Shown here: piece by piece, positions 5,215 through 56,246 of the stretch
Layout of the letters: the number at the start of each line of letters is the position of its first letter
Position numbering within the stretch: the stretch's first letter is position 1
DNA from: an uncultured virus (IMG/VR IMGVR_UViG_3300036719_003654)
Lineage: Duplodnaviria; Heunggongvirae; Uroviricota; Caudoviricetes
Virus record (IMG/VR): IMGVR_UViG_3300036719_003654
Length of the DNA: 64,000 nucleotides
Reading direction: 5' to 3' (one strand)
Notes under the pieces: model-generated
The model's database searches: none
What the model saw: the letters and a program-made list of their open reading frames with translations, nothing else
What the model was told of the DNA's origin: nothing
Translations under genes and position numbers: made by a program

Positions 5215-6678
5215 TCAACCGTTCCTAAGATTCTCGCGAACCTCCACCAAAGTGTAATCCTTTTGCAGGACTCCGTCCTCGAACACTGGGACGAACGCAC
5301 AGTCGAGCACTTCCTCCCAAGTCGCTTGGTCCTTCAGTTGGTACTGCCCATCGGTTTTGAACACCGCAGTCAACCCTTTGGCCGACTTCTTGGTGCCGTC
5401 GTCTGTTTTCGGAGCTTTGAAAATCTCGCGGTCAACTCCGTTGACTCGGGCAAATGTGGCCTTCACTGCAAACCCATCCGTATCGCGGGTGACGTATTGG
5501 TAGGTGTAGCTGCCAATGCCAAACACCGCGTTGGTCGAGGCGAAGCCTTTGGACTTCAGACCTTCGCAGATAGCCTCGGCACGTTCGAGAGTGATGCTGT
5601 CCCCGTAGATCAGACCAACGTGGGTGTCCAATTGGCGAAACCTTTGCGGAGTGATTGTGCCTCCGAACACCTCCCACAACACCTCAATAGAACCTTTGTA
5701 CTCGGGGGAGTCTGCGGGCGCGTCTGGATCTCCACACACCACCTTCACCGGGTCTCCTGTGTCGGGACGAAACACCACTTTACCATCGCGGGAGAGGATG
5801 TCTTCCTTCAGTTGGACTGTGAACTGGGTCAACACCTGCCAGTAGTCCCACGAGTCCGAAACGATAGAGACGACTCCTGCCGGGTAGATGTCTTTGATCA
5901 AGCGACGGAAGGTACCAAGTTCATTGTCCATGCCTCCGGCGCACATAACGCTATGTTCGGTCGCAGGGACGCTGCCACCAACAAGCTCTTTGTCCGAGTC
6001 GGCGTTGTAATACTTCTCAAGGAAGTCGATGGCTGGGATGGTGTCTGTCCCAGTGAAGCTGAGAAGGTGTCCCGCCCCCGACATCATGGCTGCCTCCGGC
6101 CCAAACATGCCTCGAAACGAGAAGTCGTGACCCTGCCATTGGACGAAGTCTGTGCAACCGACCGTGTCCAAAGCATATCTGTCAAGCAGCAGTCGATACT
6201 GCCGGGCTGTCGTAGCAGAAGTACACATCCCCCAAACGCTTGTGGACAGGATCGTTTCAAGGTAGTTGGTCAGCCAGAAAAAGTCTGGCAAAGTGTTCCA
6301 GATCACCATGCAAGGTACTCGAATCGGGTACACACTGCCTTCCGGCAAAGACATGATCTTGATCGGCAGGTAGCCGAGATGGTGGAGGGCTTCGATATGC
6401 GCCGTTCCGACTTCGTTCGGACCCAAGTAGTTTTTGATACGTCGCTTGAACTCGGCCACAACCTTTTCTTTTGGACGTTGGAAGAAGTTCTCGTTCCACT
6501 GGCGTATGAGCACTTCTTTGACGAAGTATTGCAGTCCGAAAAACACCATGTCAGGATTTCCGGCGCGGCGGGTTTTACGGGAGGTCAGGTTGCTGAACAC
6601 CAGCTCGGTCCCTTCTGGGTATTGGCGGCGGTGGTCCACTTTGTAGCCGTCGATTTGAGTGCAAGGATTTGTGGTCAT
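5215..6678 (-). CDS. nadV: Nicotinamide phosphoribosyltransferase family protein (Nampt, or Namat of NARP1)
   Basis: DGYKVDHRRQYP, HDFSFRG, SVPATEHSVMC, SIVSDSWD, RPDTGDP, IYGDSIT, FGIGS, KKSAKG. Confidence 0.95.
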   Translation of the reverse strand: MTTNPCTQIDGYKVDHRRQYPEGTELVFSNLTSRKTRRAGNPDMVFFGLQYFVKEVLIRQWNENFFQRPKEKVVAEFKRRIKNYLGPNEVGTAHIEALHHLGYLPIKIMSLPEGSVYPIRVPCMVIWNTLPDFFWLTNYLETILSTSVWGMCTSATTARQYRLLLDRYALDTVGCTDFVQWQGHDFSFRGMFGPEAAMMSGAGHLLSFTGTDTIPAIDFLEKYYNADSDKELVGGSVPATEHSVMCAGGMDNELGTFRRLIKDIYPAGVVSIVSDSWDYWQVLTQFTVQLKEDILSRDGKVVFRPDTGDPVKVVCGDPDAPADSPEYKGSIEVLWEVFGGTITPQRFRQLDTHVGLIYGDSITLERAEAICEGLKSKGFASTNAVFGIGSYTYQYVTRDTDGFAVKATFARVNGVDREIFKAPKTDDGTKKSAKGLTAVFKTDGQYQLKDQATWEEVLDCAFVPVFEDGVLQKDYTLVEVRENLRNG

Positions 6679-6762
6679 TGGAAGGAGTAAGGGTCGTTGG
6701 TTTTTTCGAGACTCCATCCCGCTCGGATAACCGAGATGAATGTCGCCGCGATAATCAGCAGG

Positions 6763-6999
6763 TCAGTTAACAGGCTCGTAGGTTTGTTCAAAGATGTCGG
6801 GTTTGCAGGCGTACACCTCGCCTTGAACTCCTGTGATGATCCAATCGCCTGGAGTCACTTCGTGTTTGATGGCGGTGTGCTCAAGCGTGTGGATGCCGAA
6901 ACCTGTGGGGGATGTAATATCTGCCACAACTGAAGGGTGATCCCCTTCTTTGTTGAACCGCGTAGCTTCGATGATGACTGGTCTTTTCCTGAATTTCAT
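6763..6999 (-). CDS. Conserved phage protein (MKFRKRPVIIEA family)
   Basis: IHTLE...PGDWIITGVQGEVYACKPDIFEQTYE. Confidence 0.85.
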   Translation of the reverse strand: MKFRKRPVIIEATRFNKEGDHPSVVADITSPTGFGIHTLEHTAIKHEVTPGDWIITGVQGEVYACKPDIFEQTYEPVN

Positions 7000-7784
7000 A
7001 GTCCGAGTTTGATGGTGGTTACTTTGTCTGCGGCGTGATGCCAAAAGCTGTCGGTTGTGATGATCTCGTCAAACTTCTCCTTCAAAGTGTGAAAACCTTT
7101 GGAGAAGATGCCGTGCGAAACTATCAGGGTGAGGTGAACTGGTTCAATCTGCTCTGCGATGGCAAGGAACGTGGCTCCACCATCGCAAATGTCGTCGATG
7201 ATGACGCAGTTGCGTCCAGTGCAAATTTCCGGGTTCTGTACCACGAGGGACACACGCCCGGTCGTGGTGTCGCGGACTTTGTCGCAGAACACTTTTTCCG
7301 AAAGGCAGGCGTTCCAATCTTGGTAGTCGGCGGCTTTGCTGACAGCTCCTTTGTCGGGCACGATGAGAACCGCGCCCAACTGGTTGTAGGCTTTGACCAG
7401 CCTGCTGTTGTTGTGAGATCGCGAGTTGTGAATCAAAGATGTGGCAACGCTGCTGTGAACATCGAACAGGTTGACCGATAAGAAACCACAGGAGTTGATG
7501 CACTGCGCCACCACCTCAAGGTCAAAACTGTCGCCAGTATTGATGATGCGGTCGTACCGAGCACCCATCAGGTAGGGTACCACAAGTTCGCGGGGTGTCG
7601 CTTGTGTGTGTCGCACTGCATTGACCACGAGCATCAACTGAACTAGTTCGAGGGGACTTCGGATTGGACAAACAACCCGCACGTCGTCTCCCGGCTGAAT
7701 GTCATTCACTGTGACGTGAGGCTGGTTGTCCGGGAAAAGGAGAGTTTTTACACGCTCTCCGGTGATCAGGTTGATGGTCTTCAT
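6996..7784 (-). CDS. prs: Ribose-phosphate pyrophosphokinase family protein (Prs, or Adps of NARP1)
   Basis: FPDNQPH, PYLMGARYDR, DVHS, PDKGA, IIDDICDGGATF, SHGIFSKG. Confidence 0.92.
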   Translation of the reverse strand: MKTINLITGERVKTLLFPDNQPHVTVNDIQPGDDVRVVCPIRSPLELVQLMLVVNAVRHTQATPRELVVPYLMGARYDRIINTGDSFDLEVVAQCINSCGFLSVNLFDVHSSVATSLIHNSRSHNNSRLVKAYNQLGAVLIVPDKGAVSKAADYQDWNACLSEKVFCDKVRDTTTGRVSLVVQNPEICTGRNCVIIDDICDGGATFLAIAEQIEPVHLTLIVSHGIFSKGFHTLKEKFDEIITTDSFWHHAADKVTTIKLGL

Positions 7785-7828
7785 GGTGTGTTTGAATTTC
7801 ACTATACTGAAACGGTGCGGACAGATTG

Positions 7829-8278
7829 TCAACCCCAAAAGTCGTCAGATTCTTCGACTGGCATGGCCTTCCGACTCTCCTCGTCAATCTCCGCCTGCTC
7901 GGCGGCAGTGTAAGGCCACGCAGACGTTTCCCGTTTTGCCTGCCGCTTCGGAAAATACGCGTACATCGTGTGCCGCGCATTGTTGACCCGGTTGGCGAGG
8001 CACACGTCCACGAAGGCGACCGAGTGTACGGCTGTCACCTCCTCCACGAACTTCATGGTCTGTTCCAACGGGACGATCAGGGTCGGTATGCTGTCCTCCA
8101 GGATGTCCTCGGCGTAGTCGGTCAACGTGCCAAGCTGCGACACTTTGCGGGCGGCGGCAGCCTCGTCGAGGTAGAGAGAAAAACCGTTGCTCTCGTGGAG
8201 CATGCGCAGGGTAGCGCGGGGGGCGGCGGCTCGCATGGCGGCGAGCTTGTCGGTGAATATGGATTTGAAAAAGGTCAT
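7829..8278 (-). CDS. Stand-alone MutS domain-I-like protein, C-terminal DDFWG
   Basis: RMLHESNGFSLYLDEAAAARKV...GTLT resembles the MutS-I GDFYELFxxDAxxAA pattern. Confidence 0.55.
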   Translation of the reverse strand: MTFFKSIFTDKLAAMRAAAPRATLRMLHESNGFSLYLDEAAAARKVSQLGTLTDYAEDILEDSIPTLIVPLEQTMKFVEEVTAVHSVAFVDVCLANRVNNARHTMYAYFPKRQAKRETSAWPYTAAEQAEIDEESRKAMPVEESDDFWG

Positions 8279-8841: not shown

Positions 8842-9207
8842 TTAAACTTTAGCCGTTTGCAAGAGGGATTCCAGCGGCCATCGGGCGAGGAGTTTCTGGA
8901 TTGGCTCGCATACAAACTCTGGGCAGCCGATCTTCTCCATTCGTTCGTGCAGGCTGAGTAACTCGGCGATCAGAATCCGCGTGCTCTCCCATCCTGCTTC
9001 GGCGTTTCCGGCGCAGGCGGCGATGTAGGCGGCGTTTGCATCGGAGTTGTCCATGCAATCGCAAATGAAATCTGCATCACTCCAGACCTCATTTGTGATT
9101 GTGCCTTCTTGCTGCCACCTCCCCGGCGTCCGTTTCGCGGCAATTTCGAGGAGATGGGCGAGGTGCGCGTCGATCTTGCGCAGGTGGTCGAGTTGGGCGG
9201 TGGTCAT
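8842..9207 (-). CDS. Hypothetical protein (TPGxW / NAxxIAA, Ead-like family)
   Basis: KRTPGRW...DANAAYIAA. Confidence 0.65.
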   Translation of the reverse strand: MTTAQLDHLRKIDAHLAHLLEIAAKRTPGRWQQEGTITNEVWSDADFICDCMDNSDANAAYIAACAGNAEAGWESTRILIAELLSLHERMEKIGCPEFVCEPIQKLLARWPLESLLQTAKV

Positions 9208-9803
9208 GGTGTTGGCTCTCCAATCCGGCATTCAGCCGTGTAAAGGTGTTCAAGGGACTCGAAGCGTGGGAGCGTTTCGCAGGGTGTAGCAAATGCGCTG
9301 TCCACACTCAGTACGCGGTTGTTTGGGACTGCTGCAAACCAGCCTGCCTCGACCTGGAGAACGTGGAGCTGTTTGTGCTGCTCGAAGTCGTTCGCCAGTG
9401 CGTTGCCTTCGAAATCCAATGTGAAGAGGTAGCGGGCGGCAAGGCGTTCGGGGTGTCCTTCGATCTGGCGCACGTTGAGCAGTTCAGCGTTGCCCCGCTT
9501 CCACAGGGCGAACTCGTGGACGCAGAAGGTCGAGGAGAACGTATCCCAAGGCTGGATCAATTCGGTGTCTGGCAGAGGGCACGGTTTCCAGCAGAGCGCC
9601 TGGATTGGTAAACAGAACATCGCTCCAGCCATTTCCGGCTCATCGAACCTCACTTGGAACTGGAGGCTGGCTGCTTCCTGGCAACGTATCCCCAGGATGT
9701 GGGCCTGAAGGTACTCGCCTTTCCGGCTTTGATGGTTCTGCGTGAACTCGGCGCGGACTAAGCAGCGGACGATTGAGGGCGTGTCGGAGAGAATGAAGGG
9801 CAT
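9204..9803 (-). CDS. Conserved phage hypothetical protein
   Basis: GAMFCLPIQAL...QPWDTFS...YLFTLDF...QHKQLH...PNNR pattern; ATGA coupling. Confidence 0.75.
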   Translation of the reverse strand: MPFILSDTPSIVRCLVRAEFTQNHQSRKGEYLQAHILGIRCQEAASLQFQVRFDEPEMAGAMFCLPIQALCWKPCPLPDTELIQPWDTFSSTFCVHEFALWKRGNAELLNVRQIEGHPERLAARYLFTLDFEGNALANDFEQHKQLHVLQVEAGWFAAVPNNRVLSVDSAFATPCETLPRFESLEHLYTAECRIGEPTP

Positions 9804-9821
9804 GGCGTTGGGCTTCGGTGG

Positions 9822-10190
9822 TCACTTGATGAAGGGTTGGAGTTTGGTGAGGGCTGCCTGCATCTGTGCCAACACGTCAAGCGTGTCGTCACGAGTACCC
9901 CGAACGAAGATTTGGAGTTTTATGGCGTTGCTTGCCTCTTTGATCGCCTCGCGCATCTTGGACAGTTCAGAAGGCTCGTGGTCTCGCAGAAACTTGTCCG
10001 TTTCGTCTTGGGCGTTCACCTCGTCGTCGCGTATTTCCAGAAGGAGTTCGCGGGCATCGTCTTTCCATCTGGCGAGGTCGTCGCGCTCACGTTCCAGTTT
10101 TTCCATTTTTTCGCGCAATTCAAAGCTCCATGCTCCTTTGGAGGCCATAATCGCGGCCTGAGTTTCTGGTGTTGGTCTTGTGTCGCTCAT
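9822..10190 (-). CDS. Coiled-coil hypothetical protein
   Basis: TPET...LERERD motif; coupled to the upstream gene. Confidence 0.65.
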   Translation of the reverse strand: MSDTRPTPETQAAIMASKGAWSFELREKMEKLERERDDLARWKDDARELLLEIRDDEVNAQDETDKFLRDHEPSELSKMREAIKEASNAIKLQIFVRGTRDDTLDVLAQMQAALTKLQPFIK

Positions 10191-10447
10191 GATTTCTTGG
10201 TGCTGAGTTGTTTCTTCCGCTCGGACTCGCTCCACTGCGCCATCCACATGAAGCACACGTCACGCGGATCTTTGCGCTTGAACGAATTGCGAAAGCCTGG
10301 GTTGGTTTTCCAATGGTGGCGCAGGCGGACGCAGAGCCGGGTCTGTTCGTCGCGGTCACGGGTTGCCCGACTGGCGATGACTTCCGGCACCAGATCGGGC
10401 AGGGCTTTGTCGATGTCAGGGTTGAGGTACTTGGATTTGGTTTTCAT
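10187..10447 (-). CDS. Hypothetical protein
   Basis: Preceded by the recurrent AAAACCCCGCGCC-ATG leader. Confidence 0.65.
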   Translation of the reverse strand: MKTKSKYLNPDIDKALPDLVPEVIASRATRDRDEQTRLCVRLRHHWKTNPGFRNSFKRKDPRDVCFMWMAQWSESERKKQLSTKKS

Positions 10448-10459
10448 GGCGCGGGGTTT

Positions 10460-10633
10460 TTAGGCGTTCGGGTATAGCAGCGAGCTGCTGCCGTTTTGCT
10501 CGTACTCGCGGGTTTCCGGGTTGCGCCAGAAATAAAGCCACATCCCGCCCTTGCGAATGGCGGTCTCTCCGCTGGCGAGCGTTTTGTACGCGGTAACTCC
10601 GAACTTTTGCAGTATGTCTTCAACAGTTTTCAT
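10460..10633 (-). CDS. Hypothetical 57-aa protein (not in the ORF track)
   Basis: MKTVEDILQKFGV...YPNA*, directly after a repeated promoter. Confidence 0.6.
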   Translation of the reverse strand: MKTVEDILQKFGVTAYKTLASGETAIRKGGMWLYFWRNPETREYEQNGSSSLLYPNA

Positions 10634-10673
10634 GGGCGTGGGGTTTTAAGGGTGAATTTTCATCGTGTCAAGC
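10625..10673 (-). promoter_or_regulatory. Sigma70-like promoter cassette, copy 1
   Basis: TTGACA-N17-TAAAAC-N9-ATG; 48 of 49 nt identical to 11869-11917. Confidence 0.75.
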
Positions 10674-10829
10674 TGGTATGTGAAAGTCATTTCACAAACC
10701 GTGCATCCGTGCAAGGCTCGGTCAGGTTGGTCGTTTGGTTGCGTTTGAGGGTGGCGAGCTTGAGCCGCCAGTGCTGGCGTTTGTCGGTCACACGGTCAGC
10801 CGGGCGGACGAGTCGCGGGGTTTTGGGTT

Positions 10830-11192
10830 TCATGGTGTCGTCAGGTTGAGAATGCGTTGAGTGATGCACGAGGCCAAGCCTCGCGCCTCCATCTCGGTTT
10901 TGCGGTTGCCTTGCCCGTCGAAATTCCATTTTCCATTGTGCGGGTTGCAGTCCACTTGCGTCCGGGCTTTGGTTGGGTCTGCAAATCGACCCATGACGGA
11001 CAAGAAACGCAGCGTGTCCCGGCCAGTGCCGAACGCCTTCTGCGCGTGGCAGGTGTAAGGCCCGACCATGGTTTGCACGGTGTACTCTTCCTCGCCGTAT
11101 GGGTTGGCAACGGGAGCGATGCCACGGGCGGCGAAGTCTTGCCTGATCTGGTCAAGAAAAGCCTCGTGGACTGCTTTGGTGTTGGTCTTCAT
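10830..11192 (-). CDS. Hypothetical protein
   Basis: MKTNTK...CNPHNGKWNF. Confidence 0.65.
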   Translation of the reverse strand: MKTNTKAVHEAFLDQIRQDFAARGIAPVANPYGEEEYTVQTMVGPYTCHAQKAFGTGRDTLRFLSVMGRFADPTKARTQVDCNPHNGKWNFDGQGNRKTEMEARGLASCITQRILNLTTP

Positions 11193-11369
11193 GGGGTTTA
11201 GAGAGGCAGTCCGTTGGAATCGCATTCGCGCACGTCGAGAAGTGTTGAGCCGGGGCGGTCCCAGGCTCGCCAGACATGCGCGGCGGAGACGCCGGGCAGG
11301 GTGATGGTGTAGCGGTTGGTTTCGATGCGGTAGGTGATGAGGAAACGGGCTTTCATGGGCGCGGGGTTT

Positions 11370-11684
11370 TTAGAAGGAGTACCCGGCTTTGATGAGCGCG
11401 GCCTTGGCGGCGTGCATTGCGTAATGGACTTTGGTGTTGCCTGTTCCTGACTCAGGGTGCCCAGCAAGCATGTTTTCAATCTCTTCCAATGCTTTCGCCA
11501 TGTCGGGGGCGGCGGCGATGAATTGAATGTTGGGCTTGTACGTCGGCAACAAATTGCCCTGCACGCGGCAGATGACCATGGCAGACTTCCCTCGTGGGGA
11601 GTCTTCGACGGTGCCTGCGATTATGGATCCGGGAAACTCGTGTGCGACGTTCCATTCTCCAGAGGTGATGTTTGGTCTTTTCAT
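11370..11684 (-). CDS. Hypothetical protein (TPGPW...IAAAPD family), paralog of 13959-14276
   Basis: MKRPNITSGEW...IAAAPDM...KAGYSF versus MKKPNITPGPW...IAALPDL...KAGYEF. Confidence 0.7.
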   Translation of the reverse strand: MKRPNITSGEWNVAHEFPGSIIAGTVEDSPRGKSAMVICRVQGNLLPTYKPNIQFIAAAPDMAKALEEIENMLAGHPESGTGNTKVHYAMHAAKAALIKAGYSF

Positions 11685-11697
11685 GGGCGTAGAGGTT

Positions 11698-11877
11698 TTA
11701 GGCGACGGTGTGTCTCGTTTGTTCAAGGCTGCGCACGAATGTGTTTTTGTCCGCACGTCGGCGGAAGGTCTGGAGATCGAAAAAGGGGCTGCCGTCTTTG
11801 TGGAATTTGGTGCCTCCGTGGAAGGAAACGGAATGCCGGGTTTTGCCGATGGGCGGGTTGTCTCGAAAAGTTTTCAT
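11698..11877 (-). CDS. Hypothetical 59-aa protein (not in the ORF track)
   Basis: VSFHGGTKFHKDGSPFFDLQTF; follows the promoter cassette. Confidence 0.65.
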   Translation of the reverse strand: MKTFRDNPPIGKTRHSVSFHGGTKFHKDGSPFFDLQTFRRRADKNTFVRSLEQTRHTVA

Positions 11878-11917
11878 GGGCGCGGGGTTTTAAGGGTGAA
11901 TTTTCATCGTGTCAAGC
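11869..11917 (-). promoter_or_regulatory. Sigma70-like promoter cassette, copy 2
   Basis: Near-identical to 10625-10673; the spacer contains the palindrome TGAA-AA-TTCA. Confidence 0.75.
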
Positions 11918-11977
11918 GCACAATCCAAAACTCGGCGGCCCCTGGCTATGGGGCGGGCGGGTTCTGGCTTGCGGGCT

Positions 11978-12460
11978 TTAGCTGCGGACGTAGTAGCTTT
12001 CACCTTGGTACTCGACCGTGGAGTAGTCCTGTTGCAGTTGCTCGGCGGCTTCAGTCCAGTCGATGCAGGTGAAAGGCCATGTGGCCTCGCGAACTGCTTT
12101 CCCGTGGATGACCTCGGCCATCTCGCGGGCGTAATCCTCGAAATCACTTTCGGGGATCATCGTCTCACCGTGCATGAACTCGCTGATCTCGTTTTCGAGG
12201 GTTTCGAGTTCGTCCAGCTCGGCTTTCTCGTCGTCGCTGAAGTCGGACTCGGCGATTTCAAGATTGCTCTCTGCGTCTGTCACTCCTTCGCTGGCAATCT
12301 CCAGCGCGGCCTCGCTCGCCTCATCTTCGGGGGTTTCCTCCAATGCTGCCAGCTCGCCTTTCTTTCCCTCCAGTTCCTCGCGTGCCGTGGTGACGGCATC
12401 GCGGAGTTCTTCGAGTTTGCATTTACGCTTGTACAGGTCGCGGGTGTATAGTGTTTTCAT
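11978..12460 (-). CDS. Highly acidic protein, ArdA-like C-terminus (candidate anti-restriction DNA mimic)
   Basis: Very Glu/Asp-rich; FEDYAREMAE...WPFTCIDWTEAAEQLQQDY. Confidence 0.55.
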   Translation of the reverse strand: MKTLYTRDLYKRKCKLEELRDAVTTAREELEGKKGELAALEETPEDEASEAALEIASEGVTDAESNLEIAESDFSDDEKAELDELETLENEISEFMHGETMIPESDFEDYAREMAEVIHGKAVREATWPFTCIDWTEAAEQLQQDYSTVEYQGESYYVRS

Positions 12461-12484
12461 ATTGTCTTGGTCGTTTGGTTTGTT

Positions 12485-12543
12485 GCGTCACTCTGCATTT
12501 GTCCGGGCTTGTGACCGGCGCACCGTTGCGGCTGCATTAACGC
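12485..12543 (-). ncRNA. Twister self-cleaving ribozyme, type P1
   Basis: GCGU-UAA-UGCA-GC-CGCA(ACGG)UGCG-CCGG-UCACAAGC-CCGG-ACAAA-UGCA-GAGUG-ACGC: P1-P4 plus both pseudoknots (CAC/GUG, GC/GC); intergenic and in the sense of the operon. Confidence 0.9.
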
Positions 12544-12556
12544 CCGAGGGCGGTTT

Positions 12557-13015
12557 TTAGTTGATCTCCTGCAACTGCTCAAGCTCGGCCCCGGTGAAGA
12601 AGGCGCGCAGCCGTTTGGCGAAGGCCGAACAGCGGCGGAACGTCTGGAGTGATTTGATGCTGTCCGACTCGTACCCGTATTCCGCGCAGAAGTCCGCGAA
12701 GGTTTCCGGCGTGTACGCATCGCCCGAGATGCAGGCGAGCACAGAATACGCGGAGACGGTTTGAATGCCTTTCTCCGCGTCTGCGATGCTTGACCAGAAG
12801 TCGAAGGTCAGGCGGTTTGAAGCGCAGACGTTGCCGGTATGTTCTGGAGTGCCTGCTTTGCCCTTGCTAAGCGTCACACGGTAGTGATGGCCGTGCTTGC
12901 CGTTGTCTCCCCACGCTGGCGCTTTGGTGTCGCTCAGCGTGGCGCGGAACTTGATCTCGTTGGAGGTCAAGAACTGCTCCGCTTGGGTGTCGTATTCGTT
13001 TGGTGTCGTTTTCAT
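12557..13015 (-). CDS. Conserved phage hypothetical protein
   Basis: YSVLACI...TFADFCAEYGYESDS. Confidence 0.75.
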   Translation of the reverse strand: MKTTPNEYDTQAEQFLTSNEIKFRATLSDTKAPAWGDNGKHGHHYRVTLSKGKAGTPEHTGNVCASNRLTFDFWSSIADAEKGIQTVSAYSVLACISGDAYTPETFADFCAEYGYESDSIKSLQTFRRCSAFAKRLRAFFTGAELEQLQEIN

Positions 13016-13101
13016 ATGTTTTGCTTTTGACGTTTTGCGGGTGTCTCCCCCGTTGGTTTCTCTGTCTGCCAGCGTCCACCGCTGGAAATTGATTGCGCGG
13101 G

Positions 13102-13129
13102 TATATAGTTTAAATGCTCACAGTGTCAA
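13102..13129 (-). promoter_or_regulatory. Sigma70-like promoter (CACTGT family)
   Basis: TTGACACTGTGAGCATTTAAACTATATA; related to the promoters near 13751-13778 and 16713-16741. Confidence 0.6.
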
Positions 13130-13727
13130 TCACTTCAAGGCAAAAGTTCATTGCCAGCAGGCGCGACTTTTTCAGATTGTCTGGCCCGGCTTCGATGTAC
13201 GCCGCGAGTTCTTCGGGCGTGCCTTGGAAGCAGCCGCAGAAAAACCTCTTGGCTTCTCCAATGGTTGCCAGCGTGAGCATTCGCCCGCACTCGCCGTGCC
13301 CGGTGAAAGCGACTTGCGCGAATTGCAAACCCCGGTTTTCGGAGAGGTTCGCGCCGGAGAGGTTCGCGCTGCGGAGGTTCGCGCTGCGGAGGTTCGCGCC
13401 GCAGAGGTTCGCGCTGCGGAGGTTCGCGCCGTAGAGGTTCGCGCCGCAGAGGTTCGCGCCGTAGAGGTTCGCGCCGTAGAGGTTCGCGCCGTAGAGGTTC
13501 GCGCCGGAGAGGTTCGCGCTGCGGAGGTCCGCGCCGTAGAGGTTCGCGCCGGAGAGGTTCGCGCTGCGGAGGTACGCGCCGTAGAGGTTCGCGCCGGAGA
13601 GGTTCGCGCTGCGGAGGTCCGCGCCGTAGAGGTTCGCGCCGCAGAGGTTCGCGCGTTTTCCGGCGGGGTCATTTACCAACCAAAGGGAATGTAAACGCAG
13701 GGTTTCTTTGATTTGTTCGGTGTTCAT
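13110..13727 (-). CDS. Pentapeptide-repeat protein with DUF5758-like C-terminus
   Basis: About 20 A(N/D)Lxx repeats followed by FFCGCFQGTPEEL. Confidence 0.9.
   Translation of the reverse strand: MNTEQIKETLRLHSLWLVNDPAGKRANLCGANLYGADLRSANLSGANLYGAYLRSANLSGANLYGADLRSANLSGANLYGANLYGANLYGANLCGANLYGANLRSANLCGANLRSANLRSANLSGANLSENRGLQFAQVAFTGHGECGRMLTLATIGEAKRFFCGCFQGTPEELAAYIEAGPDNLKKSRLLAMNFCLEVIDTVSI
13341..13654. repeat. 15-nt coding tandem repeat
   Basis: Units such as GAGGTTCGCGCCGTA encode the pentapeptides. Confidence 0.9.
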
Positions 13728-13735
13728 GGTGTCGA

Positions 13736-13756
13736 ATATATATATATATATATATA
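13736..13756. repeat. (AT)10A microsatellite in the promoter/leader
   Basis: 21 alternating A/T bases between TTGACA (13773-13778, minus) and the ATG at 13727. Confidence 0.9.
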
Positions 13757-13774
13757 GGTTAAAAATTCACAGTG

Positions 13775-13924
13775 TCAAGCCGGGAATGCGATTTTGATCC
13801 AGACAAACCCCGCCACCATGGCGAGCGCGAGACACGCGGCCCATGTGCGCAACGCCTTTGCCCTGCGTCTGCGGGTTGCTACTTGGGCGTAATGGTGGCG
13901 GAGTTTGTGAGGATCTGCGTTCAT
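13775..13924 (-). CDS. Small membrane protein, 49 aa (not in the ORF track)
   Basis: Basic RRRRAK followed by the hydrophobic WAACLALAMVAGFVWI. Confidence 0.55.
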   Translation of the reverse strand: MNADPHKLRHHYAQVATRRRRAKALRTWAACLALAMVAGFVWIKIAFPA

Positions 13925-13958
13925 GGCGGTGGTTGCTGGTTTTTGGCGGGGTGGGTTT

Positions 13959-14276
13959 TTAGGGGAACTCGTATCCGGCTTTGGCGAGTGCGTCTCTTGC
14001 TGTTTGCGTGTCGTATTCCATCCGTCCAGCTTCTCGCTGGTGGTCGTTTGCGCATTCCAGCAGGCTTAAAGCTGCTCCCAATGCCGCCAGCAAGTCGGGG
14101 AGCGCGGCGATTGCCTGCGCATCCGCGTTCAAAATGCGCGTGTCGCGTGAACTATCGACAAGGCAAATGCTGGCCCCGCCGTTTTCCCATGAGCGGGATA
14201 TGCCTATTTCCTGCTCTCCGTTTGCGGCGTTGGATTCTTTGCGCCACGGCCCCGGCGTGATGTTTGGTTTCTTCAT
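13959..14276 (-). CDS. Hypothetical protein (TPGPW family)
   Basis: MKKPNITPGPW...ADAQAIAALPDLL. Confidence 0.7.
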   Translation of the reverse strand: MKKPNITPGPWRKESNAANGEQEIGISRSWENGGASICLVDSSRDTRILNADAQAIAALPDLLAALGAALSLLECANDHQREAGRMEYDTQTARDALAKAGYEFP

Positions 14277-14279
14277 GGT

Positions 14280-14356
14280 GTTTCTGGTTTGTTGTTTCGC
14301 GGCTTTGTAGCTCACGCATGGCGGCACCCTCGCGGATGCCGTCAAGCGCGGTCTAG
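14280..14356 (-). repeat. Intergenic hairpin cassette, copy A
   Basis: TAGACCGCGC-[stem, GCGA loop]-GCGTGAGCTACAAAGC...GAAACAACAAACCAGAAA. Confidence 0.85.
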
Positions 14357-15294
14357 GCGGTTTGCAGTTCCTTTTTCTGACTGATCTTCCGCGCCACGTT
14401 GAGCGCGAGCATGGCGGCGGATGGGTTGCCCGTGCGGATGAGTTGCGGCAGTGTGGCAGAGTCGGCGATGCCATGCGCCGCTTGGAATGCGGCAATGCCG
14501 GGCGAGCAATAGCCGAGTCGGCGGGCATCTTCGATGGTTGCCACGGCGGAGCCACAGAGCCGGGCAATCAGTCGTGCCCGGCGCTCCACCTTGCCAGCGG
14601 CACGGGCGAGTTTTTGCTCGCGCGCGTGTATAGCCAGCTTGCGGGCAAACCCAGCCTGCGCATCCGCTGCCGATTTGGTGGAGTGATAGCAGAGCGCCGC
14701 GTTGCCCACGATCCAGCCTTTTTGGCTCACTATCTGCTTGCCGCTGGTTTTCACCCACACGGCGGAGCTGTCCGCGTACAGGGCAATCAGGTGCAAACCT
14801 TCGCGGGCGGAGCACTGGCGCAGGGCTTCCGACTCAACCAAAAGGATAGATCCTTCTGGCGTGAGTTTGACCGTGTGGCTTGCGTCCGTTTTGCTGTACT
14901 TGCATTGACGGCTGTACTGATCCCCTTTGTCCGTGTTGGTGAACGCGCACGGCTCGACCCCCCAGGATGCGCGGTAAGTCGTGTGTCCGCTGTAGTCTCC
15001 GCCCATCTGCGCGGCTTTTTTGCCGATTTCCAGCGCGATACGGGCAGCAGTTTCCGCCGTCTCGCGCCGGGCTTTTGGGAGCGCGGTAAAGGTGGCGGCG
15101 GCTTTTTCACTCTCAACCTTGCAACGGCGAGCCGCTGAAAGGGTGCACGGGTTAATCAGCGCAGGCACTATTGTCCCGGTGATGATTTGGTCGAGTTCCC
15201 GTTGCGCCGTTTGACGGGCGGCAACGGCTTTATCCTCGGTATTCTTGACAGCGAGCAACTTTTTAAGGTCGAGCACTTTCGTTTCGGTTTTCAT
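14353..15294 (-). CDS. Basic Ala-rich hypothetical protein
   Basis: 313-aa ORF bounded by cassettes; DARRLGYCSPGI motif. Confidence 0.75.
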   Translation of the reverse strand: MKTETKVLDLKKLLAVKNTEDKAVAARQTAQRELDQIITGTIVPALINPCTLSAARRCKVESEKAAATFTALPKARRETAETAARIALEIGKKAAQMGGDYSGHTTYRASWGVEPCAFTNTDKGDQYSRQCKYSKTDASHTVKLTPEGSILLVESEALRQCSAREGLHLIALYADSSAVWVKTSGKQIVSQKGWIVGNAALCYHSTKSAADAQAGFARKLAIHAREQKLARAAGKVERRARLIARLCGSAVATIEDARRLGYCSPGIAAFQAAHGIADSATLPQLIRTGNPSAAMLALNVARKISQKKELQTA

Positions 15295-15298
15295 ATCG

Positions 15299-15381
15299 TG
15301 TTTTCTGGTTTGTTGTTTCGTGCGCTTTGTAGCTCACGCTTGCGCCCTCCCTTTTGCAGGGAGGACGCGGGCGCGGTCTAG
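15299..15381 (-). repeat. Intergenic hairpin cassette, copy B
   Basis: TAGACCGCGC-CC-GCGTCCTCCC(TGCAAAA)GGGAGGGCGC-AA-GCGTGAGCTAC. Confidence 0.85.
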
Positions 15382-16001
15382 TAGATTTTTCCATCTGCGG
15401 TGAACTCGTACGCGTTTGCGATGATGTTCTCTGCCACGTTATCGTCGGCGTGGTAATCCTCGTACGCGGCTTCAAGCTGGCGGTAGATCCACCGCATGAA
15501 GTCCTTCGCCGTTTCCGTGATTTCCTTTTCCGCTGCTTCCCATTGATCCGAGGTGGATTTACCTTCCCCGTTGTCTTCATACTCGCCAAGACTGACGGAA
15601 AAGTCCGTACAATTCTCGTGCGAGTAGCGGCCGCAATGCTTGACGGTGAATGAGCTTTCCGGCCATGCTTTCGCAAACTTGGCAAACTCTGCGGCAATGC
15701 GCTTGATTTGCGTTGTTGCTTCGCTTTCGCCCCATCCATCTGCCACAAGCTCCGCTTTGACACTGGCAGCTTTCCAGCTTCCTTCAAAACATGCGCCGTC
15801 GCCTTGACTCCAGAAGCCGGAAAAATAGACGTTACTTATTTCCAGCCCCATTGCTTTTCCTTGCTCTTTCGCAAACGTGCATTCACTCCAAAAGGAGTCC
15901 CCATCTAGGCGACTCGATTCCTTCCACCAGTCGCGGGCTTTTGCTTTTGCCGTGTCTGTCAGTTCCTCGTATTTGAATATCTGGATTTCCTTGGTTCTCA
16001 T
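15378..16001 (-). CDS. Conserved acidic phage early protein
   Basis: YEELTDTAKAKARDW...GFWSQGDGACF...IIANAYEFTADG. Confidence 0.8.
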   Translation of the reverse strand: MRTKEIQIFKYEELTDTAKAKARDWWKESSRLDGDSFWSECTFAKEQGKAMGLEISNVYFSGFWSQGDGACFEGSWKAASVKAELVADGWGESEATTQIKRIAAEFAKFAKAWPESSFTVKHCGRYSHENCTDFSVSLGEYEDNGEGKSTSDQWEAAEKEITETAKDFMRWIYRQLEAAYEDYHADDNVAENIIANAYEFTADGKIY

Positions 16002-16015
16002 ATGTGCGCTTTCTC

Positions 16016-16098
16016 TGTTTTTGGTTCGTTGTTTCGCGGGCTTTGTAGCTCACGCTTGCGCCCTCCCCTTTTGCAGGGAGGACGCGGGCGCGGTCTAG
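16016..16098 (-). repeat. Intergenic hairpin cassette, copy C
   Basis: Near-identical to copy B. Confidence 0.85.
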
Positions 16099-16514
16099 TT
16101 GGATTCCGCCACTTGCGCGGCGTAGGTTTTAGCAGATTCGGCTTCGCAGTGCTTGATGGCTGCAATGATCTGGTTAGAGATGTCCAACTCTGTCGTTTGC
16201 TGACCTAGCTCTTCCAATGCTTCAACGGTCATTTGATTCTCGTATCCGCTGATTTCTGGATTGCTTTCCTCTGGCACGTCGCCAGCCTTTTCCCAGGTTC
16301 CGCCAAGGTACGCGTTACCTTCGATCTCGTCACCGTTGACGATTGCCACGGCTCGCACGTTGCTTTGCCACGCCTGCCAGTCGTCGGGGTTTTCATCTTC
16401 CATGCCATCGCAATACTTGCGGATGTCGGAATGATCGTTGTCGTGCTCCCAGATTGTGTGAATCGAGATTGATGGCGCAATCTGGGCAAGGGCTTTTTGC
16501 AGTTCGGTTTTCAT
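16095..16514 (-). CDS. Acidic hypothetical protein
   Basis: 139 aa, A/C-rich leader, AYLGG motif. Confidence 0.7.
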   Translation of the reverse strand: MKTELQKALAQIAPSISIHTIWEHDNDHSDIRKYCDGMEDENPDDWQAWQSNVRAVAIVNGDEIEGNAYLGGTWEKAGDVPEESNPEISGYENQMTVEALEELGQQTTELDISNQIIAAIKHCEAESAKTYAAQVAESN

Positions 16515-16602
16515 ATTGTGTGCTTTCTGTGTTTCTGGTTTGCTGTGGGCGTTCGCCGCCCGAAAGGTTGCCGGTTTGAGGAGAGCCGGGTTCCATGGGT
16601 TT

Positions 16603-16707
16603 TCAGTGGCACCATTCGAACAGCACTGCCGCGAAAAAGCAGGCGAAGATGATCGTAATGGCGAATTGAATGAAGGCGTGAGGCTCTTGAGGGTCGAGGG
16701 GGTTCAT
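16603..16707 (-). CDS. 34-aa membrane peptide (not in the ORF track)
   Basis: FIQFAITIIFACFFAAVLF; the ATG is 5 nt after a TTGCAC-N17-TATACT promoter. Confidence 0.5.
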   Translation of the reverse strand: MNPLDPQEPHAFIQFAITIIFACFFAAVLFEWCH

Positions 16708-16751
16708 GTGAAAGTATATAGTCTAAATGTTAACAGTGCAAGTCTTTTCTG

Positions 16752-16913
16752 CTATTGTGCGGCTTCCACCCACCATGGGCGGAGCTTGGCCAGTTTTTTG
16801 TCCTCGTGCGTTTTGCGCTCTTGCGCCTCCCGGCGCTCCCGCTCAACGCGGAGCTTGTCAAGAGTCGCCAAGAGGCGTTCCAGTTTATCGGGCTGAACGG
16901 GAGCGGGTTTCAT
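16752..16913 (-). CDS. Hypothetical protein
   Basis: Starts MKPAPVQ after the recurrent AAAAACCCCGCGCCCC leader. Confidence 0.55.
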   Translation of the reverse strand: MKPAPVQPDKLERLLATLDKLRVERERREAQERKTHEDKKLAKLRPWWVEAAQ

Positions 16914-16927
16914 GGGGCGCGGGGTTT

Positions 16928-17122
16928 TTAGATGTTCAAACCTTGGATCTTTTCGGCGCTCACGTAGAGAGCTTGTGACGCCTTTTTCCAAGGTTTCGCG
17001 GTCGCTTTGTCCTGCCATGCCGTTTCGATGTGTTCCACCTTTTCCAATGCCATGAGGTGAAGCGCCATCACCACGTCAAACAGGTTTGAAGCGTCCGTCA
17101 GTTTTTCGATTCGGTGATGCAT
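16928..17122 (-). CDS. Hypothetical protein, first gene of the leftward operon
   Basis: Upstream TTGACA-N17-TAAGGT on the minus strand. Confidence 0.6.
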   Translation of the reverse strand: MHHRIEKLTDASNLFDVVMALHLMALEKVEHIETAWQDKATAKPWKKASQALYVSAEKIQGLNI

Positions 17123-17410
17123 ATCGTTTTACGGGTTGAGGTTGCTTTAACGGACGAACCTTAACAGTGCTTTCTGAGGATGTCAACGGCCAGAAGTATA
17201 TATTTTGTATGTAATCATAGTTAAAGTGTAATTTACCCTGTCTGGCTAGTTAATCTGTACTCCCTTTCCTAGTACAGGAATATTTAAGGTTATAATGAGG
17301 ATAAAAATCGAAGAAAAAGAGAAAGGGAAAAGGGCTTTTAGGGCACGAGTCACAAGTCACGAGGCGAAAGAGTTGACGAATGAGGATAACCCTCATAGTA
17401 TAGAAATCCT
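17123..17410. promoter_or_regulatory. AT-rich divergent control region
   Basis: Strand switch; leftward TTGACA-N17-TAAGGT; rightward TTGACG(17373)-N17-TAGTAT; three CACRAGK heptamers at 17344-17364. Confidence 0.7.
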
Positions 17411-17998
17411 ATGATTCCGCTTCAACTGACTCTGAAAATCTACCATTCTAACCGTGTCCGGCTGGATATGGTCAAACTGCCCATTCCGACAAACCTGACC
17501 CGTTGGATAAACGAGGCTGTCACTAGGCGTTTGGACAGTGAACACCCTGAAACCATTGGAGCGGTGGAAGTTTTGCCGCCCGAACCTGAAAAGCCTATCA
17601 ACCCTATGGAGTTGTGGGAGAAAGCGAAGCAGGCTCCAAAGCCGTTGGACTTTCTCGGGCCGTACAGAATCAAATATGGGCAATATCCCGCTTTTCTGGC
17701 GCTCGCTGAAGGCCAGCGGCGTGAGTTGAAGAAAAAGGGCATCATCCTTGGACTGGAAGACCTTTTGGAGATTGTGGCGAAAAAGAACGGCATGGAATTG
17801 AGCGAAGACGAAAAGGTTTCCTTCATGGCCGAGCATCGCCAGAAACAATTGGAGGTTGCGGCGGAATCAAAACTGGAAAGTTTCGACGAAATCCCGGAAG
17901 ACGTGAGAGGACATCCCCGGAAGTACGCGGAATGGGATGCAAAGCGGCAGGCTCATCTTGCAGCGGTGGAAACCGATTTCTGGGGGGCTGCTGTATGA
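17411..17998 (+). CDS. Ribbon-helix-helix-like regulator 1, ends DFWGAAV
   Basis: LTLKIY...NLTRWINEAVTRRL. Confidence 0.65.
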   Translation: MIPLQLTLKIYHSNRVRLDMVKLPIPTNLTRWINEAVTRRLDSEHPETIGAVEVLPPEPEKPINPMELWEKAKQAPKPLDFLGPYRIKYGQYPAFLALAEGQRRELKKKGIILGLEDLLEIVAKKNGMELSEDEKVSFMAEHRQKQLEVAAESKLESFDEIPEDVRGHPRKYAEWDAKRQAHLAAVETDFWGAAV

Positions 17999-18252
17999 TC
18001 CTGAAGAAAATACTTTTGACTTATTATCCGGTGACTCGTGCGCGGCTGGAACTTGCTCGTATCCCGCTTGGGATGTCCATCACGCGCTGGATTAACTCGG
18101 CTATTTGTGAGAAGCTGGACCGTGAACAGCCAGAAACGATTTTGGAGGTTGCGCCGGTTGAAGCTTCGCCCGTTGTCGCTCCTGATACCGATTTTTGGGG
18201 TGAGGATGAAGCCGACAAGGTTCGGGCGCTCGTCAAACGTCACACACGGTAA
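17995..18252 (+). CDS. Ribbon-helix-helix-like regulator 2 (paralog), contains DFWG
   Basis: ILLTYY...SITRWINSAICEKLDREQPET; ATGA overlap. Confidence 0.65.
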   Translation: MILKKILLTYYPVTRARLELARIPLGMSITRWINSAICEKLDREQPETILEVAPVEASPVVAPDTDFWGEDEADKVRALVKRHTR

Positions 18253-18349
18253 AAGCTGGCGATAGCACATTGGAGGGGCGGCACGTTTCGCGCGTGCTGC
18301 CCTTTTTCGTGTCCTTGACTGGGGGGCGGGAGGATGGCAAGGTGACGGC

Positions 18350-18886
18350 ATGGCAAATCATCAAGTGACGGAGTATTGGCCGGAGATAAGGCGATTGGCG
18401 GAACTCGGCGTCCCGCTCGCCGACTTGGCGGAAAAATTCAAGGTCAACGCCAAGACCGTATACAACCGATGCGCTTCCGAGGATTGGTTGATCCCGAAAC
18501 GGTTAAAGGCGAAACTAGATCGGGTAAGTAGGGAATCCGGTTTTGACCCGCTTTTGGGGGGAAAATCCCCCTCTGAGTTTTCGCGTTCCCTCTTGGTTGA
18601 GACGTGGCAGGAGAAGGCGGAACACGTTCGTACCGTGGCTTATGAGGCAGCGATTCAAGCGATTGAGTCCAGTTCCGGCAACATCGTAATCGAATCGGCC
18701 AGTGACCTGAAACATGCGGTTCACGTCGCACGCCAAGCAACCGGAGTTCTCGACACGGACGCCCCCCAGATCCAGCTCTCCTTGTTCGCGAATCAGGACA
18801 TTTCTGGCCCTGCAATTATGGAGAGTCAAACGTATGAGGCCGAGACGTTACAGCCAGTGCAAGAGGATGCGGATTTCTGGGGATAA
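18350..18886 (+). CDS. Terminase small subunit-like HTH protein, ends DADFWG
   Basis: WPEIRRLAELGVPLADLAEKFKVNAKTVYNRCASEDW N-terminus, followed by a helical core. Confidence 0.6.
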   Translation: MANHQVTEYWPEIRRLAELGVPLADLAEKFKVNAKTVYNRCASEDWLIPKRLKAKLDRVSRESGFDPLLGGKSPSEFSRSLLVETWQEKAEHVRTVAYEAAIQAIESSSGNIVIESASDLKHAVHVARQATGVLDTDAPQIQLSLFANQDISGPAIMESQTYEAETLQPVQEDADFWG

Positions 18887-19000
18887 GTATGGAGATTCAG
18901 CGGAGAATGCAGGGTTTAGGGGTGCATCCTCCTTTCCATTACAGTCATTAAATGTAGCTAATACATTGTAGATACACGGGAAGGAAACACTGCGGACACG

Positions 19001-55668: not shown

Positions 55669-56246
55669 AGAGGTTTCCGTGCCCACATCTCCAACGAGAA
55701 GATACGGCGGTTAAGTTTTGGCACGATCTCGGCAACCGTGGGCGAGTGGTTCTCGTCTGAGTTGACAAGGAGATGGACGTGGTGTGAGGGGAAACCTGCG
55801 CGGACAAAATGTGCCCACATGGAATCCTCTGTGAAGATTTGAGCGTGCTGGTCAAACCACAAAGCTGCCTCGAACCACGTTGGGATAGGGTTCGGTGGAT
55901 CTGTCACCTCGAACAAACGAGGCCAGTTCTCGTTGCGGTCCTCGTCGTGGACAGAACGGAAGTAGGTGGCGTCTGGCACGCTCACCAGTATCACGCCACC
56001 AGGGTTGAGCACTCGCAGCACTTCCTTCATCACCTTGACCGCTTCACGGCAGTCCATGTGCTCCAGAACATGGCTGCACAAACAGCCGTCAAACGAGTTG
56101 TCGGGAAAAGGGAGTGGCTGGCGCAGATCGTGCCGGACGAAGTTCGGCTCGTTGATCTCATGACCACCGCCCTCCCAGTTGTCGAGGTTGACCCAGATGT
56201 TGTCGATGGGTCTTGTTGACCCGGCTCCGAGGTTGAGAATTTTCAT
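55665..56246 (-). CDS. Class I SAM methyltransferase
   Basis: LNLGAG, LPFPDNSFD, SHVLEH, RVLNPGG. Confidence 0.9.
   Translation of the reverse strand: MKILNLGAGSTRPIDNIWVNLDNWEGGGHEINEPNFVRHDLRQPLPFPDNSFDGCLCSHVLEHMDCREAVKVMKEVLRVLNPGGVILVSVPDATYFRSVHDEDRNENWPRLFEVTDPPNPIPTWFEAALWFDQHAQIFTEDSMWAHFVRAGFPSHHVHLLVNSDENHSPTVAEIVPKLNRRIFSLEMWARKPL

Follow-up and report, generated by a model that had tools for sequence, protein, structure and literature searches.

Hairpin cassettes at the gene junctions of a lake-water phage, and the self-cleaving ribozymes that occupy the same kind of junction

Why should three consecutive genes of a phage end in a stop codon that is also the first paired triplet of an RNA hairpin, and why should that hairpin keep its base while exchanging its upper stem? 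The question is raised by a window of 64,000 nucleotides (nt), the whole stretch of DNA analysed here, which is IMG/VR record IMGVR_UViG_3300036719_003654 and comes from an otherwise unknown tailed phage sampled in lake water. A first-pass annotation, made from the letters alone, had pointed to three such hairpins between positions 14,280 and 16,098 and had offered RNase III-like processing, a protein-binding or antitermination site and an unrecognised ribozyme as explanations. In this article, I will argue that the cassette (the hairpin with the tail and leader that follow it) is a real, conserved and uncatalogued RNA element; that it very probably is a functional intercistronic RNA structure of the sense strand; and, from sequence comparison and with about even chances in my judgement, that the cassettes are RNase III-type intercistronic processing and stabilising sites that can be interchanged with ribozymes.

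The three hairpins with a constant base are indeed present, on the minus strand and between four consecutive genes, in the order 139-amino-acid (aa) gene, cassette C, 207-aa gene, cassette B, 313-aa gene, cassette A, 105-aa gene. Their parts are as follows:

16046..16097, minus strand: hairpin of cassette C, with UAG at 16097-16095, AC-CGCGC, upper stem CCGCGUCCUCCC..GGGGAGGGCGCAA, GCGUG at 16055-16051, AG, and CUA at 16048-16046
16002..16045, minus strand: tail and leader of cassette C, with CAAAGC, CGCG at 16038-16035, AAAC, and an A/C-rich leader to the ATG at 16001
15330..15380, minus strand: hairpin of cassette B, with UAG at 15380-15378, AC-CGCGC, an upper stem of the same type as in C, GCGUG at 15339-15335, and AG-CUA
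15295..15329, minus strand: tail and leader of cassette B, with CAAAGCG, CACG at 15322-15319, AAAC, and an A/C-rich leader to the ATG at 15294
14308..14355, minus strand: hairpin of cassette A, with UAG at 14355-14353, AC-CGCGC, upper stem UUGACGGCAUCC-GCGA-GGGUGCCGCCAU, GCGUG at 14317-14313, and AG-CUA
14277..14307, minus strand: tail and leader of cassette A, with CAAAGC, CGCG at 14301-14298, AAAC, and an A/C-rich leader to the ATG at 14276

Each hairpin is imperfect and 48-52 nt long. From its loop of 4-7 nt downwards, an upper stem of 10-13 base pairs (bp), a middle stem of 5 bp and the basal UAG/CUA stem of 3 bp succeed one another, with a 2x2 internal loop at each of the two joints; CAAAGC..CRCGAAAC and the A/C-rich leader follow, with a CUA-to-AUG distance of 31 nt in A, 35 nt in B and 44 nt in C. 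The folds of the three copies (-28.4, -34.1 and -36.1 kcal/mol; z-scores of -4.0 to -5.7) were equalled in stability by none of 200 shuffles, the sense strand is the more stable one in every copy (A -27.7 vs -23.4, B -33.4 vs -29.6 and C -33.1 vs -28.6 kcal/mol), and a covariance model, R1, scores them at 77.3 (A), 94.1 (B) and 91.1 bits (C). The 16-mer GCGTGAGCTACAAAGC occurs exactly three times in the 64 kb, and no further match appears at up to three mismatches. B and C share one upper stem, GCGUCCUCCC/GGGAGGGCGC, just as the first-pass annotation had it, and its account of copy A as a different sequence forming a stem of similar length also stands, but A is no one-off: of the three upper-stem types found it is the commonest among relatives, with the type of B and C second. 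The claim that the UAG of the hairpin is the upstream stop codon needs a similar trimming, since it is true of all three window copies but of only 8 of the 15 sense instances in relatives (an upstream ATG-initiated open reading frame, or ORF, of at least 33 aa being required), the upstream gene stopping at least one base before the UAG in the others. Because TAG is the stop of only 11 of 73 crude ORFs in the window, the run of three consecutive TAG stops stems from the cassette itself. An intrinsic (Rho-independent) terminator was considered and rejected: no U-tract follows any of the three copies, as had been said of them, and CAAAGC and A/C-rich sequence stand there instead, whereas the phage's own terminators (283-238, minus strand, and 18274-18308, plus strand) carry one. 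The Rfam scan of the window gave no match at the gathering score, and at E up to 10 over 9000-19000 it gave only a twister, to which I return below, and two chance-level hits elsewhere, leaving the cassettes unmatched.

How far does this element extend beyond one phage? An exact 15-mer scan of viral contigs returned three near-identical phages and five distant ones, the latter with the same architecture and other upper stems; the 15-mer was not found in the nearest record, G001. R1 detected a strong copy (59.8-90.1 bits) in all five distant records and in 8 of 26 records encoding relatives of the 770-aa protein, one of the eight being a near-identical phage and seven being further relatives, while a ninth record (G010) reached only 10.7 bits and the closest complete relatives, G007 and G008, gave no R1 cassette. 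The cassette-bearing relatives have 25-57% protein identity to the window and a GC content of 47-52%, that of the window being 57.6%. A degenerate pattern yielded 27 stretches in viral contigs, 26 of them real (a match in L140, without the stem and at 11.1 bits, was set aside as chance), and 40 matches in 596 Gb of prokaryote genomes, not one of which fits R1. Family 1, as I call the set to which A, B and C belong, was found in this phage clade only.

That structure is conserved over sequence, which had been proposed from the three window copies, is borne out by comparison: pairing holds in 95.8% of the 286 cells from 16 distinct sequences, both sides have changed in 7 of the 10 upper-stem pairs, none of 500 shuffles reaches the observed covariation score, and slid registers pair only 23-56%. 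The basal stem of family 1 is nearly invariant, partly by construction since the search pattern fixed it, and in the second copy of G002 UUCAC/GUGAG replaces CGCGC/GCGUG. L129 and L125 have the same base and tail with different upper-stem types, so the upper stem has truly been swapped. Most relatives carry a single copy, 27-35 nt upstream of a conserved 49-aa protein that is Arg-rich and hydrophobic and has its window homologue at 13775-13924 (tblastn E 0.001-0.002). In L245-L247, at about 1040-1200, the 49-aa gene is present and the hairpin absent, a CUAG...CCACGAAAC remnant lying upstream of an extra small hydrophobic gene inserted before it.

A near-invariant base and tail beneath an exchangeable upper stem, directly before a gene for an Arg-rich protein, call to mind a site read by a sequence-specific protein through the basal stem and the CRCGAAC tail, be it a phage translational operator or a processive antitermination site of the lambda nut or HK022 put type. 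The L129 and L125 pair speaks for this, as does the finding that neither cassette nor 49-aa protein was seen in five cassette-negative genomes, although with a query of 49 aa the empty result shows little and the phylogenetic profile is confounded by relatedness. Lambda nut combines boxA with boxB, a short hairpin whose conserved loop is recognised by an Arg-rich peptide; the loops of the cassettes, unlike boxB, vary in both sequence and length. The small protein has a hydrophobic C-terminal helix and looks membrane-type, and seven other families of unrelated sequence have the same design and slot, which one sequence-specific protein would not read. I therefore regard a protein site of this kind as decidedly unlikely.

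Those other families came to light in the operons of relatives through a single-diagonal hairpin scan, model R1 and inspection, the single-diagonal scan being used because an energy-only hairpin scan gave 287 matches in the 58% GC window and did not discriminate. In all, the clade holds at least eight hairpin families that are unrelated in sequence, are all intercistronic and follow one design, namely an upper stem of 10-14 bp, a 2x2 internal loop and a lower stem of 8-10 positions. In nearly all of them a basal helix of 3-4 bp is followed by a small loop, a middle helix of 5 bp, the 2x2 loop and an upper helix of 10-14 bp, which the apical loop closes. Besides families 1 and 2 they comprise family 3, two solitary hairpins in G002, a set of four copies in G025, one family shared by G027 and G028, and a single hairpin in G008; the members located outside family 1 include these:

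UUGC-Y-UCCUU-GU-CUCCCC..: family 2, in six genomes
7798-7848, 7269-7331 and 6513-6563, minus strand (G030): hairpins of the same design at successive gene junctions
54784-55855, plus strand (G002): hairpins of the same design at successive gene junctions
24717-25656, plus strand (G025): hairpins, some preceded by a second, shorter hairpin
29519 and 30138 (G027), and 5727, 6319 and 6824 (G028): hairpins of the same design

In family 2, all 114 cells pair and 2 pairs have changed on both sides. A leader and an ATG follow the element at every one of 19 junctions inspected, and in most a stop codon lies just upstream. Along a single diagonal of 22-23 stacked positions, A, B and C each have 18-20 pairs, about the two helical turns (some 20-22 bp) expected of an RNase III signal, and so do 21 further hairpins; the 2x2 internal loop sits 10-14 bp below the apical loop in families 1, 2, 4, 5, 6 and 7 and in the G008 hairpin. 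Stability favours the sense strand in 21 of 24 hairpins, with a mean difference of 5.3 kcal/mol, and in the G008 hairpin too, which supports action as RNA of the sense strand.

What else, then, occupies junctions of this kind? The first-pass annotation had mentioned a twister in the equivalent position between two downstream genes, and it is there, 13 nt past the stop of gene 12557-13015 and 24 nt before the ATG at 12460; the default Rfam scan missed it because its score lies under the gathering score of 67.2. The junction after the orthologue of that gene holds three different elements in three phages:

12485..12543, minus strand (window): twister-P1, 59.4 bits, E 1.2e-11, with all conserved core positions aligned
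2180-2247 of L154, minus strand (G007): Hammerhead_II-like element, whose 29.8 bits lie below gathering (E 3e-4 over 401 nt searched), with the core segments GAAAC, GUC and CUGACGA aligned
55372-55321, minus strand (G008): two-turn hairpin of the shared design, 52 nt

A second junction, between the '..YAYRLN' gene and a 111-aa gene, is taken in G031 by a hammerhead-like sequence and in G002, G003 and G024 by a hairpin of family 2. The same hammerhead-like sequence precedes the 111-aa gene in G030, G017, G005, G019 and G026 as well, though it is scored by Rfam only in G030 and G019, and the scan of the G026 region did not report a hammerhead at E up to 0.01. Within cassette-bearing operons, ribozymes also stand directly between genes: a twister of 48.3 bits in G004, and type II hammerheads of 38.1 bits in G030 and 38.5 bits in G019, both above the gathering score of 37. 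Clustered hammerheads have been proposed to cut long phage transcripts into single-gene mRNAs, as described in PMC3088659 and PMC6765202. Since the same junctions hold self-cleaving ribozymes in relatives, cutting is favoured over mere folding.

Could the cassette itself be the founding example of a new self-cleaving ribozyme class? It is an uncatalogued, conserved, structured RNA about 1-3 kb from a twister or hammerhead in the same operons, which is the type of neighbourhood where new ribozyme classes were sought according to PMC6765202. However, variation affects the apical loop as well as both internal loops, the bases that stay constant sit in helices, neither a pseudoknot nor a multi-helix junction is present, sequences without relationship have the same design, and the Rfam search at E up to 10 (9000-19000) matched no family, so that this suggestion of the first-pass annotation fares poorly and I judge it highly improbable.

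Evidence for a second pairing adds a further layer. In every family the 3' strand of the basal stem has a second potential partner immediately downstream (CRCG for the CGUG of family 1), and when the downstream 24 nt were shuffled the shuffle fraction was at most 0.076 in 19 of 23 hairpins and 0.02 in the G008 hairpin, compared with 0.17-1.0 in a mirror control that used the upstream flank and the 5' strand. In cassette B the S2:S3 hairpin has -8.5 kcal/mol (0 of 500 shuffles), and in copy C the minimum free energy fold of the 97-nt context already includes the small alternative hairpin. Where G-U pairs are involved, the downstream segment departs from the 5' strand, which argues for selection on the pairing and not for a duplicated target site.

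Two mutually exclusive pairings supported across families, one of them already present in the predicted fold of copy C, could be put to use by structural punctuation that is never cleaved. Such hairpins might block exonucleases, insulate the A/C-rich leader so that it stays single-stranded, or switch between two states, a ribosome that stops at UAG opening the basal stem, upon which the 3' strand would pair with CRCG and translation of the neighbouring genes would be coupled. The hairpin begins at the upstream stop codon or a few bases from it, and Shine-Dalgarno-like motifs are rare, standing before 11 of the 73 crude ORFs of the window, so open leaders may matter for initiation. On the other hand, about 20 nt separate the small alternative hairpin from the AUG, so that it would not obviously mask or expose the start site, and relatives carry self-cleaving ribozymes at the same junctions; uncleaved punctuation is thus an unlikely account, albeit one that I take seriously.

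RNase III-type processing, the reading I prefer, would proceed as follows. The cassettes would be intercistronic elements of a long leftward, probably early, mRNA, and because they sit in the junction type where the clade carries self-cutting ribozymes they probably mark cut-and-cap sites of that long message. A double-strand-specific endonuclease, most likely the host RNase III, would cut at the internal loop below the upper stem, and the upstream cistron would retain a hairpin at its 3' terminus; the freed GCGUG-AG-CUA would then re-pair with the downstream CRCG, by which the downstream cistron would gain a base-paired 5' end with the new end buried, the net result being a cut between two hairpins. 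Judged by their consensus structures, hammerheads in such junctions should yield products of that shape as well, and after a twister cut most of the folded ribozyme would lie at the start of the downstream product. Stem-loops at the 5' terminus protect mRNA, and RNase E senses free 5' monophosphates. RNase III substrates typically measure two helical turns, and internal loops confine cutting to one strand and leave a protective 3' hairpin, as set out in PMC1540722, where R1.1 yields an upper stem-loop product of 28 nt compared with the 26-34 nt predicted here. The helix length and the placement of the internal loop thus fit the RNase III-like option of the first-pass annotation, cleavage itself being a prediction, and the substrates used as reference, like the known rules on inhibitory base pairs in the proximal and distal boxes, are those of the Escherichia coli enzyme, which may not be the host's.

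The RNase III signals of phage T7 (R0.3-R1.3, with R1.1 as the model substrate) are placed between early genes by the T7 gene map, and the internal loop of R1.1 is asymmetric. The cassettes resemble them in being intercistronic hairpins of about two turns between early genes, with an internal loop under an upper stem of about 12 bp, no U-tract, and single-gene mRNAs with a protective 3' hairpin as the expected products (PMC1540722). They differ in that cleavage at the cassettes is only predicted, their internal loops are symmetric (2x2), the 3' basal strand has a conserved downstream partner, ribozymes take the same junctions in relatives, and many unrelated families exist in one clade. Clusters of hammerheads and twisters in prophages are similar in that structured RNAs lie between single phage genes, and the hairpins described here occupy the same orthologous junctions (PMC3088659, PMC6765202), but the cassettes have no ribozyme core and no Rfam ribozyme match, and any cut would be made by a protein enzyme and leave other end chemistry. 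Going one step further, and with somewhat less than even confidence, I propose that the hairpins and the twister and hammerhead ribozymes may be interchangeable modules of one phage system that punctuates long early transcripts into single-gene, doubly hairpin-capped mRNAs, and that phages may swap these modules at the same junction. The literature search found nothing linking hairpins and ribozymes at one phage junction, although the supplementary motif lists of ribozyme-discovery papers could hold similar motifs. A link between Drum RNA and ribozymes was also considered and, as passages of PMC5737381 do not support it, set aside.

The cassettes also raise a question at the level of the genome, because the genes that they separate are peculiar to this lineage:

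16095..16514, minus strand: 139-aa gene, upstream of cassette C; no family match, not in the relatives examined
15378..16001, minus strand: 207-aa gene, between cassettes C and B; phrog_5162, function unknown
14353..15294, minus strand: 313-aa gene, between cassettes B and A; no family match
13959..14276, minus strand: 105-aa gene, downstream of cassette A; phrog_1273, function unknown
13775..13924, minus strand: gene of the 49-aa protein, just after the 105-aa gene; Arg-rich N-terminus, hydrophobic C-terminus

Protein-atlas look-ups placed the 207-aa and 313-aa proteins in viral clusters without names and told nothing more, and since no homologues of the 139-, 207-, 313- and 105-aa genes were found in the relatives compared, the lineage of the window seems to have gained gene-plus-cassette modules. 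At the DNA level, the repeated cassettes and leaders may act as homologous-recombination points by which single-gene modules are gained and lost. One contig of metagenome run X23 (depth 38.7, and 0.8-6 in the skipped part) joins 15348 to 16066, that is, cassette B into cassette C, with loss of the 207-aa gene and one cassette; as it joins B to C without the gene between, the repeats would mediate gene gain and loss as well. In X23 and X24 a joint from 15990 to 16504 removes the 139-aa gene and cassette C through 8 letters shared at the gene starts. These joints come from contigs across repeats and are weak evidence; they fit both the module pattern seen between genomes and the reports on the promoter-early stem-loops (PeSLs) of T4-type phages. 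Further contig joints (16134>17108, 16877>17120 and 16931>17102, all within 16134-17120) lie near an AT-richer divergent region at about 16.7-17.4 kb, where sigma-70-like promoter matches occur on both strands, and indicate population-level deletions. The cassettes lie just downstream of this divergent promoter-like region, which makes the 'early' status of their genes plausible.

Are the cassettes then PeSLs in the strict sense, composites of a terminator and a promoter in which the stem-loop stops one gene and the conserved 3' part starts the next? According to PMC4122927, PeSLs are short conserved sequences on either side of variable genes in hyperplastic regions, where they act as points of homologous exchange. 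Here, likewise, variable single genes of a hyperplastic region lie between cassettes that recombine: the flanked genes are not in relatives, and the X23 contig joins B to C. The 3' part of the cassette, moreover, is strongly conserved. Yet PeSLs combine terminator and promoter, whereas the cassettes have neither a U-tract, which the phage's own terminators do have, nor a conserved promoter, and their signal lies on the RNA sense strand, where G-U pairs point to selection on RNA. Sigma-70-like hexamers are not conserved, with TTGACG in copy A only and CUACAAAG becoming CUAACCG or CUAAACCG in relatives, for which reason a sigma-70 promoter inside the cassette was rejected, and the strict PeSL account seems to me very unlikely.

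Nor does an element that works as DNA, such as a cruciform, a single-strand hairpin promoter like those of N4, or an attC- or REP-like recombination site, appear to be more than an outside chance. Phage N4 has a giant virion RNA polymerase, which the 3422-aa protein of the window brought to mind, and attC and REP are imperfect palindromes, as is the present design with its conserved base; recombination between copies, moreover, is observed. Against these points, the giant protein shows an ART-PolyVal domain only and no polymerase signal, and Pfam scans of window proteins (23 in one, 45 in the other) turned up neither an integrase nor a Y1 transposase. It is the coding strand that folds more stably in 21 of the 24 hairpins, and both the unvarying distance to the following AUG and the use of one slot by hairpins and ribozymes speak for RNA. 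The N4-like promoter was dropped on the polymerase and coding-strand results.

Several observations weigh against the processing reading. Three of the 24 hairpins are not more stable on the sense strand, and one junction hairpin in G004 is clearly the reverse (antisense -31.8 vs sense -20.0 kcal/mol); the internal loop of family 3 lies 5 bp from the apical loop and not 10-14 bp; and re-pairing is weak, with a shuffle fraction above 0.19, in 4 of the 23 hairpins. The element is dispensable, since three contigs carry the small downstream gene without a hairpin before it. The basal stem and tail of family 1 are kept at the nucleotide level across very distant phages, and such conservation exceeds what a structure-specific nuclease needs, which suggests an extra sequence-specific partner or horizontal spread of the cassette. 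The Pfam scans include neither RNase III nor RNA ligase among the window proteins, so the enzyme is assumed to be the host's. The stretch is present in 24 metagenome runs, all of them lake-water DNA (RNA runs, 0). Cleavage, enzyme, cut site and RNA-end protection are all predictions. Finally, the X23 joint is one contig from assembly across a repeat, and as such weak evidence.

Two further systems deserve comparison. The REP and BIME elements (repetitive extragenic palindromes and bacterial interspersed mosaic elements) of enterobacteria form a genome-wide family of imperfect palindromes that recur between cistrons, where they can stabilise the mRNA upstream, and they are associated with RAYT (REP-associated tyrosine) transposases. 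The cassettes are phage-borne, with fixed spacing to the next start and a two-turn design with internal loops; only three copies occur in 64 kb, and no Y1 (RAYT) transposase is among the Pfam-scanned window proteins. In cluster K mycobacteriophages, the start-associated sequence (SAS) and its extended form are motifs at a fixed distance upstream of several gene starts, sometimes after an imperfect inverted repeat with a variable spacer, and include the ribosome-binding site; the cassettes, by contrast, lack a Shine-Dalgarno sequence and have the hairpin as their dominant feature.

As for the remainder of the phage, a blastn search of a phage collection with 13900-17000 gave no match. The window encodes a primase, a helicase, NAD-salvage enzymes, a pentapeptide-repeat protein and the 3422-aa protein, and in window and relatives alike Shine-Dalgarno-like motifs precede 7-21% of crude ORFs, the leaders being A/C-rich and G-poor. 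A hairpin at 9053-9104 lies inside a coding region and was treated as chance. Other features are these:

11921..11971, minus strand: further hairpin of 51 nt that begins 7 nt past the stop of gene 11978-12460 and has no strand bias; TTGACA-17 nt-TAAAAC comes after it (11880-11915, minus strand)
13110-13727, minus strand: pentapeptide-repeat protein, preceded by a (TA)n run at 13736-13756
5215-6717, minus strand: nicotinamide phosphoribosyltransferase
6996-7838, minus strand: ribose-phosphate pyrophosphokinase, which forms a NAD-salvage pair with the preceding enzyme
39878-50146, plus strand: ORF of 3422 aa, whose sole family match is an ART-PolyVal ADP-ribosyltransferase domain at residues 1803-1922
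54442-58388, minus strand: a row of genes for a radical-SAM protein, three methyltransferase-domain proteins and a family-2 glycosyltransferase

The hairpin at 11921-11971 may be another kind of element, a terminator-less stem plus an internal promoter, and the row at 54442-58388 may be a module for nucleic-acid or surface modification. The NAD-salvage pair might counter a NAD-depleting host defence, versions of the 3422-aa ORF in relatives run from 2400 to 4500 aa at 25-58% identity, and metagenome contigs break or vary strongly around 13360-13770.

What would the cassettes mean for phages more generally? The role of most self-cleaving ribozymes of bacteria and phages is open, and a review asks for more work on their purpose (PMC6765202). 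With one orthologous junction that bears a twister, a hammerhead-like element or a hairpin, and a second that bears a hammerhead-like element or a hairpin, the idea of 'mRNA punctuation' becomes directly testable, and the swaps at the same junction suggest that a host nuclease and a ribozyme can do one job. The finding adds an uncatalogued family of RNA motifs, and its repeated regulatory cassettes show how a phage gains and loses accessory early genes. If the proposal is true, the orphan twisters and hammerheads of phages and bacteria would gain a concrete function, together with natural three-way replacements in which to test it.

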